Below, piece by piece: positions 4,292-59,933 of a stretch of 64,000 nt of DNA. Position numbers and translations under genes: made by a program. Numbering within the stretch: the stretch's first letter is position 1; every line of letters begins with the position of its first letter. Source of the stretch: Octopus vulgaris (Eukaryota); the NCBI GenBank assembly GCA_951406725.2, contig OX597814.1:58280001-58344000 (forward strand), read 5' to 3'. The notes under the pieces are model-generated. The model was not told where the DNA came from. It saw only the letters and a list, made by a program, of their open reading frames with translations, and did not search any database.

Positions 4292-4536
4292 CATATATAT
4301 ATTTGAATAGTTGAATGAATTATCTTATTAAGGATAATTCGAAAGATAACCGATACCTGGGTAGCAAATTCACATCAGAAAGAACACGGTTTAAGTTACG
4401 TCCCTAGGGCATAGACTACGTGCTTTCGTGCGGAAATGTGTATGTTTATTTTTAAATTATAAGTATATGAAAGAATGGAGTTGAACGACACCTCACATCT
4501 ACGTCGTTCAACTCCATTCTTTCATATACTTATATT

Positions 4537-4592
<56 letters not shown>

Positions 4593-7484: not shown

Positions 7485-8142
<658 letters not shown>

Positions 8143-8292
8143 CTAATTTCAATTATCCGCACCAACGCACGGTTGCAACACCATATGGTTGTACCTCCAA
8201 CCGTGCTGTTTTACTGCTGTGATTTTTGCTACTAAGGTATCGGTTAAACTTTTGATTAATCTACTACAAGATTATTCATCTTTCTATTTCAC

Positions 8293-13069: not shown

Positions 13070-13933
13070 GGACACACAAAAAACAAGGAGAGAAAGAGAG
13101 TAAGAGAGTAGGGGTGAAGAGCAGTAGCAGTGAAGAGAAGTAGGAATGAAGAGAAGTAGGAGTGAAGAGTAGTAGGAGTCGGGGCAAAAGAGGAGAGTTG
13201 GGTGAGAAGAAGGAGGAGTGAGGGGGAGAGAGGAGAGAAGGAGAGTGAGGGAGCAGAGAGAAAGAGAGAAGAGAGAAAGAGAGTAAGAGAGAAGAGGGAA
13301 AGATAGTAGGGGTGAAAAGATGTAGGAATGAAGAGAAGTAAGAGTCGGGGAGGAGGTTAGATGAAGAGGGGAGGAGAGTTGAGCCCAAATGGCGTAATAT
13401 ATATACGTATATATATATATAATTCTAGAATTATAAGCATAATTATAATTAGGGTTCAGCAAATTGCCTTACCACAAACCGAAATTTAGAAATAGCAGTT
13501 AAATACTATTACTCAACCATAAGATATCTCCCGGATAGCAGTATTCTTAATTCGCGCAGCTAAAGAGAAAAACATAACGAATGCACCCGGCTTTCATCAA
13601 CCTCATACGCGTTTCTGGATTAAAGAGATGTAAAACTTTTTATTTTACTCAATTATTTCCGTCTTATTATGTTATAGTTTACCGCTCATATAGACGTGCA
13701 TACACAATGATTTGTCTTTCTTTTTCAGCCTTTCGTCTGCCCTATTAGGTTTGTTAGCGATCAGATGGTGAATATTCTCTTGTGGAATTTCTTGCTAAGT
13801 GGAATTTCTTGCTAAGTTTCATGTAATAATTTCCTATTACCTATTTGTATTCTCCCTTATTGTATCTTATTTTATATATTTATATATAATCAAAAAACGA
13901 TGTTTTATGGAGTGGCTATTTACTTTAACATGT

Positions 13934-13982
<49 letters not shown>

Positions 13983-14096
13983 TATATATATACGTAAATA
14001 TATATATATATACATATAATAAATATTAGGGAATAAATCCAAATTTACAGGGAAAAAATCAGATTTAGGATTAAATCCGATTTTATAGTAAAATAT

Positions 14097-14435
14097 TATA
14101 TAATATTAATTCGAGACAAAACCACTATTTTGCAAAACAAACAAGGAAAGACTTAATCAATACATAAAAATTTTAATATAAAATAAATAAACCGCCACTA
14201 CAATCGTTTCATGTCTTCAAATGACATTCGTCAGGTGGATTTCCGATCTACTAATCAGTTTTAAAATTAAAACTGATTAGTAGATCGGAAATCCACCTGA
14301 CGAATGTCATTTGAAGACATGAAACGATTGTAGTGGCGGTTTATTTATTTTATATTAAAATTTTTATGTATTGATTAAGTCTTTCCTTGTTTGTTTTGCA
14401 AAATAGTGGTTTTTAGTCTCGAATTAATATTATAT
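14097..14435. repeat. Near-perfect palindrome: ~168-bp arms, 2-nt centre, extra tail 14020..14096, flanked by (TA)n
   Basis: Symmetry centre at 14265/14266 (cagttttaa-aa-ttaaaactg). Confidence 0.97.
14293..14336 (+). ncRNA. Type I hammerhead ribozyme motif with canonical core (mirror copy at 14195..14238 on the minus strand)
   Basis: ccac-CTGACGA-atgtc(atttgaa)gacat-GAAAC-gatt-GTA-gtgg: stems I and II pair perfectly and all core nucleotides are canonical. Confidence 0.9.
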
Positions 14436-14442
14436 ATACATA

Positions 14443-14526
<84 letters not shown>

Positions 14527-16902: not shown

Positions 16903-17870
16903 TGCAAGGTAGTATCAAAAAGCTCCCGGACATCTTTTTTGCAGCGCACCGATAGATGACAATACACGGTTGCGTGTGCAGTGAGAACTGACAGTGACCT
17001 TCTTGAGATAGTATGCCGAGTGACATACTTTTGTTTACTTCGCAAATTGTTAAATTTGTGTTCTTGTGATCAAGATAACGCTATAGTCTTCTATTTGTCA
17101 TGGGCAGGAAGGCGCAACAAAGAGCCAACATGAAACTTTGTGTTAAACTTGGGAAGTCAGTTACAGAGAAATTGAGTGTGCCAAGCCAAGCTTACGGCTG
17201 CGAAGCAATGGGTCGCGCGCAATGTTTCGAGTGTAACAAGCACTTCAAAAACCGAGAGAAGTTCATGGAAGGTTATGAGTGACATGGTAGTCCTGCTACG
17301 AGCATCACCCCCAGACATGTGGAGAAAATTCACCTGCTTGTGCAAAGGGATCGTCGGAAGACAATCAATGCCTTTACTAATGTTGCTTGTATGTCGTATG
17401 GGTCCGCACAGGCAATAATAACGTCTGGAATGAATATGCGGCGTGTCTTTGCTAAGTTTGTCTCCTGTCTACAAACCACTGTGTATAAAGAACATCGCGT
17501 GGACGTCTGTCAAGATCTCAGTGAGCATGCTGCTTATGACTCATCCTTCATGTTGAGAGAGTTGGGTCTACGGATACAACACTGAGATGAAACAGCAGTC
17601 GCCAAAATGGAAGAACCCTGCATTTCCTCGACAGAAGAATGTACTACAGAGCTGCAGCCCACTCAAGACCATGCTATATTTTTTTTACATCCACGGTATT
17701 GTGCATCGTGAATTCGTCTCCCTGTGCTAGGCCGTCAATCGAGAGTTGTACTCCAACGTTTTGAAGCTTTTGAGAGAGGACATTCGATGAAAACGATCGG
17801 ATCTGTAGAGCGCGAAGAATTGGGTTCTTCACAACGATAATACACCCTGTTAACGAGCGCTCGTCCCTCA
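16903..17870 (+). mobile_element. Decayed, 3'-truncated mariner transposon
   Basis: QQRANMKLCVKLGKSVTE...AYG...AQCFEC (HTH), WVYGYN.EMKQQS..WK, GIVHREFV and WVLHNDNTPC motifs with stops and frameshifts; left TIR-like gtatcaaaaagctcccggac. Confidence 0.9.
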
Positions 17871-29858: not shown

Positions 29859-30117
29859 TTGCAGCGTTGAAGGTGTTTATAAGCCATTTAAGAAACACAC
29901 AAAAACCGTTAGATTCACTTCAACATTTAAATTTAATTTGTCAAAATATTTTCGTCGCTTTGAGACCGCGACCTGTTAGCACGATATTTTTGTCAGTGAA
30001 CAGGTCGCGGTCTCAAAGCGAGGAAAATATTTTGGCAAATTAAATTTAAATGTTGAAGTGAATCTAACGGTTTTTGTGTGTTTCTTAAATGGCTTACAAA
30101 CACCTTCCACGCTGCAA
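29859..30117. repeat. Fold-back with 119-bp arms and 21-nt spacer, flanked by (TA)n
   Basis: 29859..29977 is the reverse complement of 29999..30117 with ~4 mismatches. Confidence 0.95.
29991..30037 (+). ncRNA. Hammerhead-like motif with swapped G3-C8 core
   Basis: tgtca-GTGAACA-g-gtcgc(ggtctcaaa)gcga[c]-GAAA-A-TA-TTT-tg[a]ca; the bracketed, better-pairing bases are read from the opposite arm. Confidence 0.65.
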
Positions 30118-42254: not shown

Positions 42255-42665
42255 TACTCTCTTTTACTCTCTTTTACTTCTTTCAGTCCTTTGATTGCGG
42301 CCATGCTGGAGCATCGCCTTTAGTCGAGCAAATCAACCCCAGGACTTTTTCTTTGTAAGCCTAGTACTTATTCTATCGGTTTCTTTTGTCGAACTGCTAA
42401 GTTACGGGGATTTAAACACACCAGCATCCTTTGTCAATCGATGTTGGGGGGGGGGGGCAAACGCAGACACACAAACACACACACATATACATATATACAT
42501 ATACACGACGGGCTTCTTTCAGTTTCCGTCTACCAAATCCACTCATGGCTTTGTTCGACCCGAAGCTATAGTAGAAGACACTTGCGCAAAGTTCCACGCA
42601 GTGGGACTGAACCGGAAACTATGTAGTTGGTAAGCAAGCTACTTATCACACAGCCACTCCTATGC
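42255..42665 (-). mobile_element. SINE family A, full-length (counterpart at 48878..49283)
   Basis: Same architecture as 8473..8892. Confidence 0.85.
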
Positions 42666-44773
42666 CTTGTTTGTTTTTTGTGTAAATGTTGTGGAGGTGC
42701 TACATTTAGAGTGTGAGAAAAATAGGTGGATTTACTATATGTTACGATACGCTCTTTGTGTTGAAGTGAAATGATTGAAACATTTTATTTTCAGTTAGGA
42801 AGAGCGTATTATTATTATTTTGTTCGCCTTTCTTACATGAATGGGAGACGTAACATATTGTCAGCCGAGCATAATTAGCACTGAATTGTATCAATGTTAA
42901 CGAATTACTGACTTTAAACTAGGCGTTTCTAGGAAAGGAGATGAAAATTGATTTGATGATACTCACATTTCCCAAACGGCTGTGAAGTACGTACTCACTC
43001 AATGAATCTGCAGGAGATAACAGTGTTTCATGGAAATGCTAACCGTTTAAGTTCGACTCGGTCCTTCAAGTTTTCGGTTATGAGATTCTATATGATAACA
43101 TAAAGAGTGAATAGGCTCCTGAGTTGTTTATTCCGTACACATCCTAATACGTTTGCATGATCCCATACTATTTGGTAAAGTTCAATTTCATCTCACTATA
43201 AACGGAATGTTAACCGACGTTAGACAAATGTTCCTGATGAAAGATACAGGAGTTAAGTACATAGAATAAATCAGGAAGACTAGATTTTAAGCACTAAATG
43301 GATACTCTAAATCCTTCCCAGTTTTACTCACCCCCAAATTATATTAATTGTTATCATGCATATTAATTAGAAATTCAATATTTAATGCTCGACTAAATAG
43401 TTCATAAAATATTAAACATTTTTATCTGAGTGTTTTTCTATAGCTAATATTGCAATTTCGGTCCACCTAACTATAAATCGTACGTAACTCTGCTGTATAT
43501 AATATATTTCAGTTTCCTTCATCGGGTTTCAAAAAGACAATTTTTTTCTATTTGAAAAATCCGAATGTGTGTCCTATAAGACACATATACCAACTCTGAC
43601 AAGGAGTTCTAAAATGACATATATGCTGATTGTGACAGAGCTAACAAAGAGTTAACGAAGTAGAAAATAGAAATTGAAGGCAGTAAAGAAATTATAACAG
43701 ATAAATCAGTGTTTCAAAAATATCGTATTTATAACGAGCGTAATATACAGGATTCCTAATATATAACATAAATGAATAGTTGATGCGTATGATATGCCCT
43801 CTAATTTTAGGCGTACTAGGTTTCCAGTTGTTGAAATAAATCGCATTTATCTCACTTCCACCGCATAATAATCGATATTTTCTCATTTATATTCCTTTCC
43901 TTGTTGCCATGATATAGGTTTATAACATCAATTCATAGAATTCTTAATGTAAAATTACACTTAACTCTATTCTCTATTCCTCTAGAAACGAGAAAAAAAA
44001 AAAACCAACGCAGCAAAGATCAGAACTACTTAAAGTAATATTCTCAGATCAATGTGATCTTTATATCGTACGGAAAATAATTGTAGTAGGTGATATGACG
44101 ATCAAACAGGTGACAAAAAATAATATTATTAATGAAAATATTATGAAGCGATGACATTCTTATTGTAATGTATCAAGTGTGAAGTAGCATTATTATACTG
44201 AAGAAGATAACAATATTGTAGAGGCAAGAAAGAGCAAATCTAGATGAAAAGATGCAATATAGAGGTATTCACAGCAGAATTAATGAAAAATCTGTCATAA
44301 AATACTTTATGGATCTGTTAACAATTCCTCATGATATTGCAATTCTATTGACAATGACCTAATAAAACCCATGAAACAGAGAATTACCTATTATCCCTAA
44401 ATTTCCTTTTGTCGCTCTCCCTTTGTGCCAGCAATACGCACACACACAAACACACACATACACACCCACAAAGACACAAATAAATACACACAAGCAAAAA
44501 CACACACTTACGTGTGTGCGTGTGTGCATGTGTGTGTGTGTGCATGTATTGCATTCTTTTATTTTTCTACTTGTTTCAGTCATTTGACTGAGGCCATGCT
44601 CCAAAACCACTTTTAGCAGCACTAAGGACTTATTCTTTGTAAGCCTAGTAGTTAACGTTCTCTTTTCCCTGAACGTTAAGTTACGGGGACGTAAACACAC
44701 CAACATCGGTTGTCAAACGATAGTGGGGGACAAACACACGCAAATATATACATGTATATATATACATATATAC

Positions 44774-44848
<75 letters not shown>

Positions 44849-44944
44849 AAAAAAAGGTTTGAAAATGCAATTTAAACAATGTTTATTTACTTAACCGGTT
44901 TCACTCTTTGGTAAAAGATTGTCAAAAGTTACATTTAAGGAAAC

Positions 44945-45175
44945 ATTGAATAATATGGGTTCAAAAAAGTTTTTTACATAATTGTCACATTGAATATTAT
45001 GCATTCAAAAAAGTTTTTTACATAATTGTCACATTGGATATTATGGGTTCAAAAAAGTTTTTTACATAATTGTCACATTGAATATTATGCATTCAAAAAA
45101 GTTTTTTACATAATTGTCACATTGGATATTATGAATTCAAAAATGTTTTTTTATACATAATTGTCACATTACATG
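44945..45175. repeat. ~5 x 44-bp minisatellite in the PLE 3' UTR (mirror at ~47680..47910)
   Basis: ttcaaaaaagttttttacataattgtcacattg(a/g)atattatg.. units at ~44960, 45004, 45048, 45092 and 45137. Confidence 0.9.
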
Positions 45176-45787
45176 TATAAATATAGTGTTTGGTAACAGA
45201 GAAGTTCAATAGTATGATGAGAATATTTGGGAAAATTTGGCAGAAAAGGATAAAACAAATATATTATTGGGAATTGGTTGCGTTAATTATTGGTTGTCGC
45301 AAATTGTCACATTACATGTATATATATACAATCTTTGGTATATATATACAGCGTTTTGACAGCAAAAATTAAAATGGATTTTTTGTACATCTCAGAATAT
45401 TTTAAGTATGTTTTTACTGACCTGTCAGTATTAGCAGAAAGGCTGAACTGAGAGAACAGAAGAAGTAGCCAATGTGGTGTATACTTCCCCTTTATGCATG
45501 AATGATTTTGGGGTTATCAGGAGGTTAGTATGCGGGTGTGAATAGATGTGTCCGTGCCTGCTGGTCAGACAGCGTCTGTTTGTCACACACATATATATAC
45601 ACACAAACACACACACACACAACAACACACACACACACACACATAGTATACAAACACACACCACATACAAACAACACACACACACACAGAACACACACAC
45701 CCACACACAACGCACCCACATATATCACATATACACACAGCACACAAATATAACATGTATCTATATATAACATACACAGATATATAA

Positions 45788-45834
<47 letters not shown>

Positions 45835-46634
45835 CACACGCACACATACATACATAATATAAATATCACACAAATACACCTAGCATATATATACACACAT
45901 ACAATACACACATACAGCATGTAAGTAATATACATACACAATATATGCATGCAATATACATACGCAATACATACATATAATATATATATATATAGACAAT
46001 GCATATACATATATACACATATACATATAAATAGTGTTTACATACACATACATAGATGTACCACATATACACACAACACACATACATACAATGCATACAC
46101 ATACACGTACGCATACATATAATATATATATACACACACACACACATAACATACATACACACACAATGCATACATATATATACACGCAATGCATATACAT
46201 GTATTCATGCACATATAGCACACCTACAATATACATATATACAGTGCACACATACACACAAATATATACACTTAATTGTACACGTACATATACAATACAC
46301 ATACATACAATATACATATACACAATGCGCATGCAGATAATGTACATGTTTATACACACATAAACATGCAAATAAATATACACACACACATATACACACA
46401 CACACATATATATACACATATATATATATATACACACATACATACATACATACATGCACATACATATATTTTTTCACACACATACACACACATATATATA
46501 TATAAAAAATTCCCCCCCCCACACACACAAATTACAAACCTATAGCGTACACACTCAAATATATCTCTACATGCCGCACACACACACAAACAAAGTACTA
46601 ACATATACACACATACCATGCATATACACACACA

Positions 46635-46680
<46 letters not shown>

Positions 46681-47067
46681 AGATACATATGTAAATACAT
46701 ACACACGTACACAATGCTCACACACACACACACACACATACACACACACCCGCACACAGTGCACACACACACACACACATATATACACACGTGCACACAC
46801 ACACACACATACAACGCGCGCACACACACATATACACACACACGCACACAGTGCACACACACACACACACACACACACACAACACTCACACACATACATC
46901 ACCTACATATATATAATGCATGCGTGTGCATGCCACGTATGTGTGCGGTCAATGCCCGCTAGTGTGTCCTATGCGTGCCGATGCGCGCATGTGCCCGCCC
47001 GCACGATATGCTGTGAGCGTGCGCGCGTCCCTGTGTGCTTGCTCTGGTTGTGCTTCCAGGGGGTATG

Positions 47068-47241
47068 TTAGAGTATGTTTAGTTGTGGTCTGTATTTTTG
47101 AATAAGATTACTTTCCTTATTTATTCGTGTTTGGTCTGTGGTGTTGTCCGAGCATTGGTATAGTGGGAAGACTAAGAATTTGGGGGACTTATTGTGTGCA
47201 CAAAGGTCTAAGTGTCCACTTAGTGGTATCTGTCTTGTGGA
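47068..47241 (-). pseudogene. PLE GIY-YIG endonuclease C-terminal fragment
   Basis: STRQIPLSGHLDLCAHNKSPKFLVFPLYQCSDNTTDQTRINKESNLIQKYRPQLNIL*, homologous to the tail of 391..1256. The upstream part RDRMTVHRQQLRDPSTRQIPLSGHL lies on the + strand at 47243..47338. Confidence 0.85.
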
Positions 47242-47925
47242 GACAGATGGAGACAGATCTGTCAGAGACAGAATGACAGTTCACCGACAACAACTGAGGG
47301 ACCCCTCCACAAGACAGATACCACTAAGTGGACACTTAACCCCAAAATCATTCATGCATAAAGGGGAAGTATACACCACATTGGCTACTTCTTCTGTTCT
47401 CTCAGTTCAGCCTTTCTGCTAATACTGACAGGTCAGTAAAAACATACTTAAAATATTCTGAGATGTACAAAAAATCCATTTTAATTTTTGCTGTCAAAAC
47501 GCTGTATATATATACCAAAGATTGTATATATATACATGTAATGTGACAATTTGCGACAACCAATAATTAACGCAACCAATTCCCAATAATATATTTGTTT
47601 TATCCTTTTCTGCCAAATTTTCCCAAATATTCTCATCACACTATTGAACTTCTCTGTTACCAAACACTATATTTATACATGTAATGTGACAATTATGTAT
47701 AAAAAAACATTTTTGAATTCATAATATCCAATGTGACAATTATGTAAAAAACTTTTTTGAATGCATAATATTCAATGTGACAATTATGTAAAAAACTTTT
47801 TTTGAACCCATAATATCCAATGTGACAATTATGTAAAAAACTTTTTTGAATGCATAATATTCAATGTGACAATTATGTAAAAAACTTTTTTTGAACCCAT
47901 ATTATTCAATGTTTCCTTAAATGTA

Positions 47926-47966
47926 ACTTTTGACAATCTTTTACCAAAGAGTGAAACCGGTTAAGT
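47926..47966 (+). ncRNA. Hammerhead-like motif, U3/A8 variant (mirror at 44889..44929 on the minus strand)
   Basis: actt-TTGACAA-tcttt(tacc)aaaga-gt-GAAA-C-CG-GTT-aagt; two unpaired nucleotides at the base of stem II. Confidence 0.55.
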
Positions 47967-48075
47967 AAATAAACATTGTTTAAATTGCATTTTCAAACCT
48001 TTTTTCTTATATAATCCCACTCGTGCGATACCCCACAACTCAACTTTTTAATATATATATATATATATATACATA

Positions 48076-48107
<32 letters not shown>

Positions 48108-48682
48108 CGATTGGCTTATTTAAGTTTCCATCTGCCAAATCCACTCGAAGCTATAGTAGAAGAAATAAGGTACTCAGAAATGTGGATGCTTTTATATTTA
48201 CAGATTTTTTTTATATGTCACATGTTTTTATAAATTATATATTAGCGCTTGTATCTAATCTAGTAGACTCTTTAGATTTGATTGTGGTTGAGAGGATTCC
48301 TCTCTTTTTCATAGTATTATAAAGTGCGTGAGGTTGAGGAGAGATATAGGATAGTAAAATAGGGTGAGGAATGGGGAGAAAGTGAGACAGTGTGTGTGTT
48401 TTTTTTGTGTGTGTATGTGTGTGTGTATGTGTCTGTGTATCTGAAAGGGGTGTCAATGGAAAAGTGAAGGAACGAAAGAAGGAAGAGAGAAAGAATACAA
48501 AATTTGTTTACATCTTTACAGGTGGTGAGTTCCTTCAATAGAAAGTGATGAGTTGATTCTAGGCCTTTAAAAAGTGGTAAAATCAGGGGGCCACTCCGGG
48601 GAAGGTCTTGATAAAAGTTATTTAATATCATCATCATCATCATTCTCCTGCGAGAGAGAGTGTGTGTGTTTTATGTATGTGT

Positions 48683-48782: not shown

Positions 48783-52049
<3,267 letters not shown>

Positions 52050-52249
52050 GCCTGTATGTGTGCGCTTTACCATTTTAAAGGTCAAGAATCAGCTCATCAC
52101 TTTCTATTGAAAGAACTCACCACCTGTAAAGATGTGAACAATTGTTTTCTTCTTTCTCTCTTCCTTCTTTCTTTCCTTCTCTTTTCCATTGACACTTCTT
52201 TCAGATACACAGACACAGACACAAATACACACACACACACACACACACA

Positions 52250-52286
<37 letters not shown>

Positions 52287-52559
52287 TTCCAATTCCTCAC
52301 CTTTTTACTATCCTATATCTCTCGCCAGAGGAATCATCTCAAATACAATCAAATCTGAAGAGTATACTACAGTAGATGCAAGCACTTATATATGATTTAT
52401 AAAAACATATGACATATTAATAAACATCTGTAAATATATAAGGAACCAGATTTCTGAGTACCTTATTTCTTCTAATATATGTATATGTGTGTGTGTGTGT
52501 ATACATATATATATATATGTATATATGTGTGTGTGTATACATATATGTGTATACACATA

Positions 52560-52740
52560 TAACGTGACACAGAGCGTGTCAAGGTCGACCCTTTGAAATA
52601 CAGATACAACTCATTTTTGCCAGCTGAGTGGACTAGAGCAACGTGAAATAAAGTGTCTTGCTCAAGAACACAACGGGTCGGCAAGAATCGAACTAACGAC
52701 CATACAATCGTGAGCCGAATGCCCTAACCACTCAGCCTTC
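52560..52740 (-). mobile_element. SINE family B
   Basis: Same conserved block as 21110..21310. Confidence 0.75.
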
Positions 52741-55463: not shown

Positions 55464-56985
55464 CAAGTGTGTGACAAAATAATGGAAACACCTAGAATCA
55501 TAGCATCATAATTTTGAAATTCTTTCTTTTATTCTTTCTTTATTCTTTTATTTGTTGCAGTCATTTGACTGCGGCCATACTGGACCAACACCTTTAGTTG
55601 AGCAAATCGACCCCAGGACTTATTCTTTGTAAGCCGAGTACTTATTCTACCTATTTCTCTTGTCGAACCGCTTCTTTCAGTTTCCGTCTGCTAAATCCAC
55701 TTACAAGGCTTTTGTCGGCCTGAGGCTATCGTAGAAGACACATGCCCAAGGTGTCACGCAGTGGGACTGAACCCGGAACCATGTGTTTGGTAAGCAAGCT
55801 ACTTACCACACAGCCACTCCTGCGCCTATATTTATAATATCTATAAAATCTTCAAAAGCTTGTTTAGTTTTATATTTTTTGGTTCATTATTAGTGTTGCT
55901 TAATTTGTTTTGCTAAAATTGCTGTTTCTTTTCAGATATCATCAGAAAAGGTAATTAATTTTCATTAAAATAACAGATCTATCGGCCTTTCAAAGAGGTC
56001 AAATTGTTGGTGCTGATAAGGCAGGCGCTAGTAGAATGAAAACAGATGAAATGTTTAGTGCATCAAGACGTACTGTCTCAAAAGTAATGACAGTCTTTCA
56101 CAAAGAGGGTCAAACCTCCTTGTCGCAACAAAACTCCGGAAGAAAGCCAGAACTTTCAGATAGGAACCGTCGGATTCTTACGCGAATTGTTAGAAAGGAT
56201 CACAAAAGTACAGCTCCCAAAATTGCTGCAGAGCTTAATTACTATCTCGGGAACCCAGTTTCCACAAACCTCTACGCTAGGGGCTGCACAAAGCCGGATT
56301 TCACAGGAGGGCTGCGATCAGAATACTACTACTTTCAAAAACAAACGTTGCAAAGAGTTTACAGTGGAGTAAAAACCTACATAATTGGCCCCTAGAGTAG
56401 TGGAAGAATGTTATTTTCTCGGATGAATCATCCTTTACCTTATTACCGACCACCGGCCTAGTATACGTGTGGAGACAGCCAAAAGAAGCATTTGACCCAG
56501 ACTTCTTTCTTCCAACTGTTAAACATAGACGAGGATATGTGATGATCTGGGGCGCTATATCTTGGAATTCCGCCGACTCAATGGTTTCCCTTCATGGCAG
56601 AATTAATAGTCAAGTCTATTTAAGCATTTTATCTGATCAAATTTATCCTATGGTTCGGAAACTGTTTCCGGAGAGAAGCACAATCACTCAGGACGATAAT
56701 GCACCAATTCACACTGCTAAAGTTGTTATTGAATGGCACGAGGAACATTCTTGTGAGGTTGAACATCTTATTTGGCCACCACACTCCCCAGATCTCAATA
56801 TTATTGAACATTTATGGCGCATTTTAGAAAAACGAGTAAGGAGTCGATATCATCCACTATTATCACTACAAGATCTGGAGACAGTTTCAGCTGAAGATCT
56901 CCTTTGGAAACAATTCAAACTTTGTATGATTCCATACCTCATATAATTCAAGCTGTAATTACTGCCAAAAGTGGTCCTACCGAAT
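55464..56985 (+). mobile_element. Tc1-like transposon, decayed, right TIR missing, with a SINE nested in its 5' UTR
   Basis: TA|CAAGTGTGTGACAAAATAATGGAAACACC left end; DLSAFQRGQIVGA, SGRKP.LSDR, VIFSDESSF, QDDNAPIH and WPPHSPDLNIIEHLW motifs; stops and frameshifts. Confidence 0.92.
55540..55830 (-). mobile_element. SINE family A with internal deletion, nested in the Tc1 element
   Basis: Head cacacagccactcctgcgccta and tail match 8473..8892; the central microsatellite region is missing. Confidence 0.85.
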
Positions 56986-59649: not shown

Positions 59650-59702
<53 letters not shown>

Positions 59703-59710
59703 TATATATC

Positions 59711-59865
59711 TGTAAAATAATATGTCACAGTTATTCGGTAGTCAAGATAAAACTCTGAGTTTCGGATGCCAGATAACCGAAGAGATGGTGGCGTGGATTT
59801 CCACCTCGGTATCCGAAACTCATTTTCATCTTGGCTACCGAATAATAGTCACATATTATTTTACA
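59711..59865. repeat. Fold-back (~60-bp arms) flanked by (TA)n, with a hammerhead-like core across the spacer and right arm; tail to ~59935
   Basis: 59711..59770 versus 59808..59865; CCGAAGA-gat-ggtgg/ccacc-atcc-GAAACTC at 59777..59821; the tail matches 29696..29760. Confidence 0.8.
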
Positions 59866-59933
59866 AATAAATTCCTCTATCTACATAATATTGAGGCCAC
59901 CTTCTTCCTTTTGTTATCTTACCGTTGTTACCA

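Follow-up and report, generated by a model that had tools for sequence, protein, structure and literature searches.

A near-spacerless palindrome with two opposed hammerhead motifs, probably a head-to-head insertion of the 3' end of a Penelope-like element

Pairs of hammerheads on opposite strands, 100-700 bp apart, were described in print in 2014 for Penelope-like elements (PLEs), and an opposite-strand pair is thus already known (PMC4209133). The same source gives zero cleavage for a minimal PLE hammerhead as a monomer and little as a dimer, and reports the G10.1-C11.1 pair as highly conserved in metazoan PLE hammerheads. PLE insertions typically consist of an inverted 5'-truncated copy with a one-sided tail and are biased toward (TA)n (PMC8557442), and the palindromes found at their head-to-head junctions have been attributed to self-priming (PMC3846280). 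Work on Poseidon of Anolis carolinensis (PAc), which has been studied in vitro, indicates that the PLE protein cuts and extends both strands and prefers A/T-rich DNA, that two start sites define the tail, and that the anole hammerhead requires the protein for cleavage and is dispensable for insertion (PMC11167929). Metazoan non-LTR retrozymes are also close, i.e., non-coding units of low G+C with a type I hammerhead and a short helix III (PMC7229834; 10.64898/2026.07.22.740005). Invertebrate retrozyme hammerheads with a 2-bp helix III and a tetraloop cleave as monomers, the mussel one at ~0.1 per minute (PMC7229834), and it has been argued that retrozymes derive from PLEs and are non-autonomous (10.64898/2026.07.22.740005).

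Here, we report on a palindrome near 14 kb of a 64-kb window (the window being the whole stretch of DNA analysed), which is A/T-rich (G+C 0.30-0.44 per 2 kb), abundant in microsatellites, and in appearance part of an animal genome, probably octopus-like. We consider, with a probability of roughly 85%, that this palindrome is a dead 5'-truncated PLE 3' end with its hammerhead, lying head-to-head with an inverted copy from the same insertion, in (TA)n. The initial annotation had described an almost spacerless palindrome of ~340 bp, and the alignment of the two arms agrees with it. Perfect inverted arms of 147 nt (14118-14264 and 14267-14413) flank the 2-nt centre, and pairing resumes past a 2-nt insertion in the right arm and runs out to 14097 and 14436; the full palindrome is therefore 340 bp long, with 168 nt on the left (14097-14264) and 170 nt on the right, one 2-nt indel, and zero substitutions between the arms. 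The left arm alone extends further, to ~14020, and (TA)n adjoins both outer ends. Both motifs face away from the centre, and the arms are therefore joined by their 5' ends. The candidate target-site duplication (14005-14018 and 14431-14444) is weak because its 10-nt core is common at (TA)n edges, occurring at 16 of the 94 edges of such runs in the window. The initial annotation had argued from the instability of long spacerless palindromes to a probably recent origin, and the absence of arm substitutions would fit a young insertion. Junctions of the head-to-head kind do recur in this family, and arm identity can also be maintained through conversion between arms.

The plus-strand motif consists of CCAC (14293-14296), CUGACGA (14297-14303), helix II formed by AUGUC/GACAU (14304-14320), GAAAC (14321-14325), a GAUU loop, GUA (14330-14332), and GUGG (14333-14336). 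The core CUGANGA, GAAA, and NUH and the three helices of a type I hammerhead are present, with 4 bp in the proximal helix I, 5 bp in helix II, and 2 bp in helix III, the latter closed by a self-complementary loop. A relaxed type I descriptor, in which covariation of positions 3 and 8 was allowed, found exactly these two sites in the 64-kb window, as compared with a mean of 0.05 per window in 100 dinucleotide shuffles (0.0 when a C3-G8 core and at least 4 bp of helix I were required); the claim of two hammerheads of this sequence, one per strand, is thus borne out. The two sites are a single motif that was copied, not two independent events. Calling them canonical is right for the core and too generous for the helices, as helix III has only 2 bp and helix II opens with an A-U instead of a G-C pair. 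The Rfam check that had been suggested failed: Hammerhead_1 scored 10.7 bits on the right arm alone (E 7.9) against a gathering score of 34, and zero matches in the window reached the gathering score of any Rfam model. A search of 14000-14460 at E<=10 gave 16 matches with no hammerhead among them; these were rejected, since all fell short of the gathering score and most belonged to microRNA models, which respond to any long hairpin. Coordinates of the features are collected in Table 1.

Table 1. Features of the palindrome and its flanks (positions in the window)
Feature	Position	Strand	Remarks
Left (TA)n flank	13925..14019		likely insertion target; contains candidate duplication 14005-14018
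Left arm	14020..14264	-	longer copy of the element 3' end: tail and a pLTR-like stretch that includes the hammerhead; family contigs cover it in 4 of 4 runs
One-sided 77-nt tail-like extension	14020..14096	-	left arm only; among the deepest-covered parts, in 4 of 4 runs
Identical mirror hammerhead	14195..14238	-	predicted cut after 14199
2-nt centre AA	14265..14266		apparently family sequence at the right-arm 5' end, no foreign spacer
Right arm	14267..14436	+	shorter copy, tail-less; stops at a recurrent family 3' end
Extended hammerhead fold	14279..14345	+	predicted 9-bp distal helix I (14279-14287 with 14337-14345), 5-nt bulge 14288-14292
Type I hammerhead, right arm	14293..14336	+	canonical core; predicted cut after 14332
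A/T mini-palindrome within arm	14347..14364	+	mirror at 14167-14184; family junctions cluster nearby
Right (TA)n flank	14431..14522		contains weak 14-nt candidate target-site duplication 14431-14444

The 14 kb palindrome is one copy of a highly repeated family. Parts of the stretch are present in at least 20 sequencing runs from 10 studies with four organism labels, none of them recorded as RNA, and contigs from four of the 24 listed runs were fitted to it at >=85% (8554 from X1, 1285 from X4, 1102 from X3, and 61 from X7), a filter that favours apparent conservation. Please note that X7 is only guessed to be RNA and that contigs reveal neither strand, ends, nor expression level; as expression evidence they were counted neither for nor against. 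Depths of individual listed records range from 3 to 388. When summed, the depth in X1 is 0.66-2.5 million at 14020-14159, 10,000-150,000 per bin over the motifs, and ~4000 at 14244-14271, and the fall from outer end to centre is ~100-fold in three runs (X1, X4, and X3). Because summed depth does not measure copy number and may be inflated at the A/T-rich tail by unrelated contigs, we used it purely as an indication of polarity. Frequent 3' ends together with rare 5' parts fit the pattern of 5'-truncated retroelements, and a dispersed repeat with heavy 5' truncation, as is usual for PLEs, is what the thousands of variant contigs describe, though depth does not count copies. TA-rich loose ends occur at 14097, the mirror of the right-arm end, in 31 contigs of X1, 15 of X4, and 2 of X7; the right arm therefore stops at a recurrent family end.

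Both arms hold the minority letter at 14112, where the alternative makes up 65-90% of depth in four runs, and again at 14183, where, in the three large runs, the alternative has 72-93% of left-arm depth (~56-72% with the mirror position pooled). These shared minority letters fit arms that come from one template. Among the substitutions and indels listed, the CUGANGA, GAAA, and GUA positions are untouched; others touch position 11.1 and loop 2. The commonest listed change within the motif, at 14205, reaches 26-57% of left-arm depth in these large runs (lower with the mirror pooled) and makes a perfect palindrome of the helix III region, with a self-duplex of -6.4 instead of -5.8 kcal/mol, which fits a dimer-type motif.

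Head-to-head joints of other family copies were found in the same contigs. All 15 joints listed, out of 30, cross from left arm to right arm at turning points other than 14264-14267; their depth is 40-101 in X1, one of them is also in X3, and neither X4 nor X7 has one among those listed. On its shorter side, a listed joint spans only 20-28 letters. Expressed in right-arm coordinates, the two arm ends of a joint differ by 0 to 146 nt, and the whole motif lies on both arms in none of the 15. Such varied turning points, with no joint holding two whole motifs, point to junctions built anew at each insertion. Two joints enter the right arm at 14264 with extra letters ahead, which suggests that the AA centre is family sequence. 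One arm end falls at 14354-14370, beside the mini-palindrome 14347-14364, in 12 of the 15 listed joints, a raw count that the depth gradient and the choice of joints listed may shape; it is conceivable, though unlikely, that the family folds back preferentially at this built-in A/T mini-palindrome.

How does the locus compare with the described systems? It shares with endonuclease-positive PLE units the head-to-head inverted copy, the 5' truncation, the extension of one arm, the (TA)n, and the junction palindrome (PMC8557442, PMC3846280). An adjacent inverted 5'-truncated copy, head-to-head, is seen at the locus as well as at the 15 listed joints, and the target is microsatellite or A/T-rich, with (TA)n on both sides here and TA-rich loose ends elsewhere. 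A target-site duplication, optional in PLEs, is indistinct in both. It differs from PLE units in that no coding sequence is left and in the length of the one-sided extension, 77 nt as against the published 30-40 bp of the PLE tail (PMC8557442), which this extension may represent. With the PLE type I hammerheads of PMC4209133 it has in common the canonical core, the 4-bp proximal helix I, a small palindromic helix III, and the opposite-strand arrangement; the short palindromic helix III/loop 3 that would allow dimers, a trait of metazoan PLE hammerheads, is present. The cores, however, start only 63 nt apart, not 100-700 bp; the unpaired base between positions 9 and 10.1 and the G10.1-C11.1 pair of the metazoan minimal form are absent, helix II starting with A-U; and a 9-bp distal helix I is predicted past a 5-nt bulge. 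PAc shares the A/T-rich target, two 3' ends, a pLTR hammerhead, and an ATG at the start of helix II (PMC11167929), whereas the ATG of our locus opens only 9 codons. The arm is without a long open frame, and a coding role was rejected since stops occur in all three sense frames.

The PLE assignment, which we regard as likely, is made by architecture and not by homology, the RT/GIY-YIG ORF of the 14 kb family having been found neither in the arm nor in the scans. Pattern scans for the family gave 0 matches in either metagenome or genome contigs. When the arm was compared with the 42 PLE-containing loci that had been fetched, the best E was 0.078, and with two other palindromes of the window it was 0.028 over 26 nt.

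If the PLE assignment is correct, the element-encoded GIY-YIG endonuclease would have opened the (TA)n target, and the one arm with and the one arm without the 77-nt tail would go back to reverse transcription begun at different 3' start sites, of which there would be two. Reverse transcription would have ended ~30 nt beyond the core of the hammerhead, with both copies then joined at a TTAA micro-palindrome. We lean somewhat toward two cDNAs primed from opposite target strands over the fold-back of one cDNA, because each of the two outer ends looks like an end of the family, and because fold-back of the shorter arm cannot make the longer arm while fold-back of the longer arm must stop exactly at a family end.

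The hammerhead would then be a passenger of the pLTR, and its best performance is predicted for a dimer held together by the self-complementary helix III region, in which eight bases form an 8-bp self-duplex of -5.8 kcal/mol. Folding of an isolated 72-mer gave the distal helix I a pair probability of 0.99; the monomer hammerhead fold, at -11.0 kcal/mol, lies 2.7 kcal/mol above the minimum of -13.7 kcal/mol, with a helix III probability of 0.006, and z-scores for the isolated motif (-0.41, 1.03, and -0.08) had no significance. Since the motifs are on opposite strands, there are never two in sense, and no dimer can form inside one RNA. Read-through RNA of either strand is predicted to be a single hairpin of -261.7 kcal/mol, in which, for the plus strand, the mirror arm pairs with every one of the 44 motif bases; such a ~165-bp hairpin would be expected to silence the hammerhead, and read-through is thus predicted to bury the ribozyme instead of activating it. 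Helix I is predicted to persist only in plus-strand RNAs whose start lies at ~14251 or beyond. The motif had been called the best candidate here for an active ribozyme. It is indeed the best preserved and the sole motif in the window to pass the descriptor; its activity at this locus is, on these folding models, doubtful. The isolated motif could be active in the tube, because similar retrozyme motifs cleave as monomers.

Several other explanations were weighed. An arm derived from a non-LTR retrozyme, i.e., a tandem hammerhead repeat with a circular RNA, and inserted in trans by a PLE enzyme would account for a type I hammerhead whose helix III has 2 bp and a tetraloop, the low G+C, and the absence of an ORF (PMC7229834), all the more if retrozymes derive from PLEs as argued (10.64898/2026.07.22.740005). 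Retrozymes, however, are tandem repeats, and the locus is inverted and 5'-truncated: no head-to-tail tandem of 150-450 bp with hammerheads was found there and no second copy in the window, cover is steeply polar and uneven along the would-be monomer, and the inverted structure with a one-sided tail is what has been described for PLEs; we hold this origin to be improbable. Alternatively, the whole palindrome might be a mobile or functional non-autonomous unit that is transcribed outward on both sides of its A/T centre and whose two identical hammerhead RNAs pair with one another in trans and then cleave themselves. The two motifs are identical and neither is broken, the bases around helix III are complementary to themselves, late-starting plus-strand RNAs may retain helix I, and opposed promoter-like motifs have been proposed for pLTRs (PMC3846280). 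The 15 listed junctions nevertheless turn elsewhere, and none keeps a whole hammerhead on both arms, which leaves the mobile unit very unlikely. A related proposal, that short outward RNAs from the A/T centre escape the hairpin, pair via helix III, and self-cleave as a trans dimer, also has only a slim chance of being right; if true, it would give a Penelope-derived stub a tandem-free route to an active ribozyme.

Near-perfect spacerless palindromes are a known class of artefact, and the structure might be a fold-back chimera of a single ordinary repeat copy made in the library or the assembly; the centre junction 14264-14267 is in fact bridged by no contig piece among the 32 listed of 11055, which we did not read as proof that such pieces do not exist. 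Against such a chimera, the flanks differ past the (TA)n, the arms differ by a 2-nt indel and in their end points, the right end being a recurrent family end, and analogous junctions occur in contigs of other runs at depths of 24-174, so that we regard it as highly unlikely. A MITE or fold-back DNA transposon with terminal inverted repeats, in which a hammerhead-like word arose by chance, would likewise be short, A/T-rich, non-coding, hairpin-forming, and set in a TA context. Such an element is hardly credible given the unequal outer arm ends, a family that is truncated from the centre outward with variable junctions, and a motif far above chance. The dead head-to-head PLE insertion thus remains our preferred reading of the 14 kb palindrome.

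In support of the PLE reading, the window holds four further inverted elements of similar build with hammerhead-like cores, one of them on an RT/GIY-YIG remnant. The latter, at 1-1500, is a Penelope-like copy with an inverted 5' part (1-388 vs 953-1339, 98%), a frame at 388-1125 for the C-terminal RT-thumb/GIY-YIG region that includes a Cx4CxxC motif, and, at 1395-1420, a minimal hammerhead with a U3-A8 core and a very short helix II. This frame is 73% identical to the C-terminus of the protein P0001 and itself matches GIY-YIG only at E 0.035; P0001 is above cut-off for RVT_1 and below it for GIY-YIG, and the proteins P0009 and P0018 are above both cut-offs. Of 42 loci with relatives of the P0001 type, 22 had a C-terminal match followed by at least 300 nt and were retained, and 20 were dropped as partial or too short. 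A sense-strand hammerhead lies 220-411 nt downstream in 6 of these 22 and an antisense one in 0 of 22 (shuffle mean 0.015, 200 shuffles); the other 16 are without a strict match, several having looser cores. Locus L029 has a hammerhead at 1960 (minus), on the opposite strand and upstream of the PLE protein match, as is expected of an inverted 5' pLTR, and the PLE-type RT/GIY-YIG match at 2501-3232 of L001 sits on a 3.9-kb contig in a bacterial metagenome bin, likely as eukaryotic contamination.

A second two-hammerhead palindrome, at 7784-8145, has cores at 8002 (+) and 7928 (-), a 23-nt centre, (TA)n on its left, a palindromic helix III, and a long helix II/loop 2; it shows no significant likeness to the 14 kb arm. 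The palindrome at 29859-30117 (97%, 21-nt centre) has a hammerhead-like core at 29996 with G3/C8 swapped relative to the usual C3-G8, a swap that gave partial rescue in vitro (PMC11167929); a helix II pair is broken in its right arm, and its left arm is cut inside the core. Long inverted arms at 44845-48008, identical over 466 nt, carry degenerate U3-A8 hammerhead-like cores at 47930 (+) and 44925 (-), and a GIY-YIG-like remnant with a small inner inversion at ~47210-47340, and 1.8 kb of mostly microsatellite-rich DNA lies between the arms; 47102-47419 gave zero Pfam matches. Two older imperfect palindromes lie beside (TA)n, 59684-59891, which has a 9-nt word in common with the bases directly 5' of the 14 kb hammerhead core, and 4441-4550, which by eye resembles the outer end of the 7784-8145 element. 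Elsewhere in the window are three related repeats (48058-48581, 51412-51946, and 52066-52561), two of which form an inverted pair 135 nt apart at 84%, and an apparent local duplication (42295-44712 and 48917-51321) with near-identical translations. The frames at 55955-56946 and 17283-17585 resemble, from their translations by eye, broken Tc1/mariner transposases.

Our literature search found no report of the motif in the presumed host type, and the supplements of PMC4209133 (alignments) and PMC8557442 (consensus sequences) could list the family; passages of PMC13282606 mention neither hammerhead, ribozyme, nor palindrome. Taken singly, the locus matters little, being probably a dead stub like many others left by a known class of retroelement. 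The family is of more value, as the head-to-head inversion of PLEs and the role of their hammerheads are still debated (PMC8557442, PMC11167929). It is very abundant and has many junctions, 12 of the 15 listed ones near the A/T mini-palindrome, and could help to test fold-back against twin priming; preferential fold-back at that site, if true, would let the self-priming model of PLE inversion be tested by counting. Such hairpins could also supply double-stranded RNA within host transcripts.
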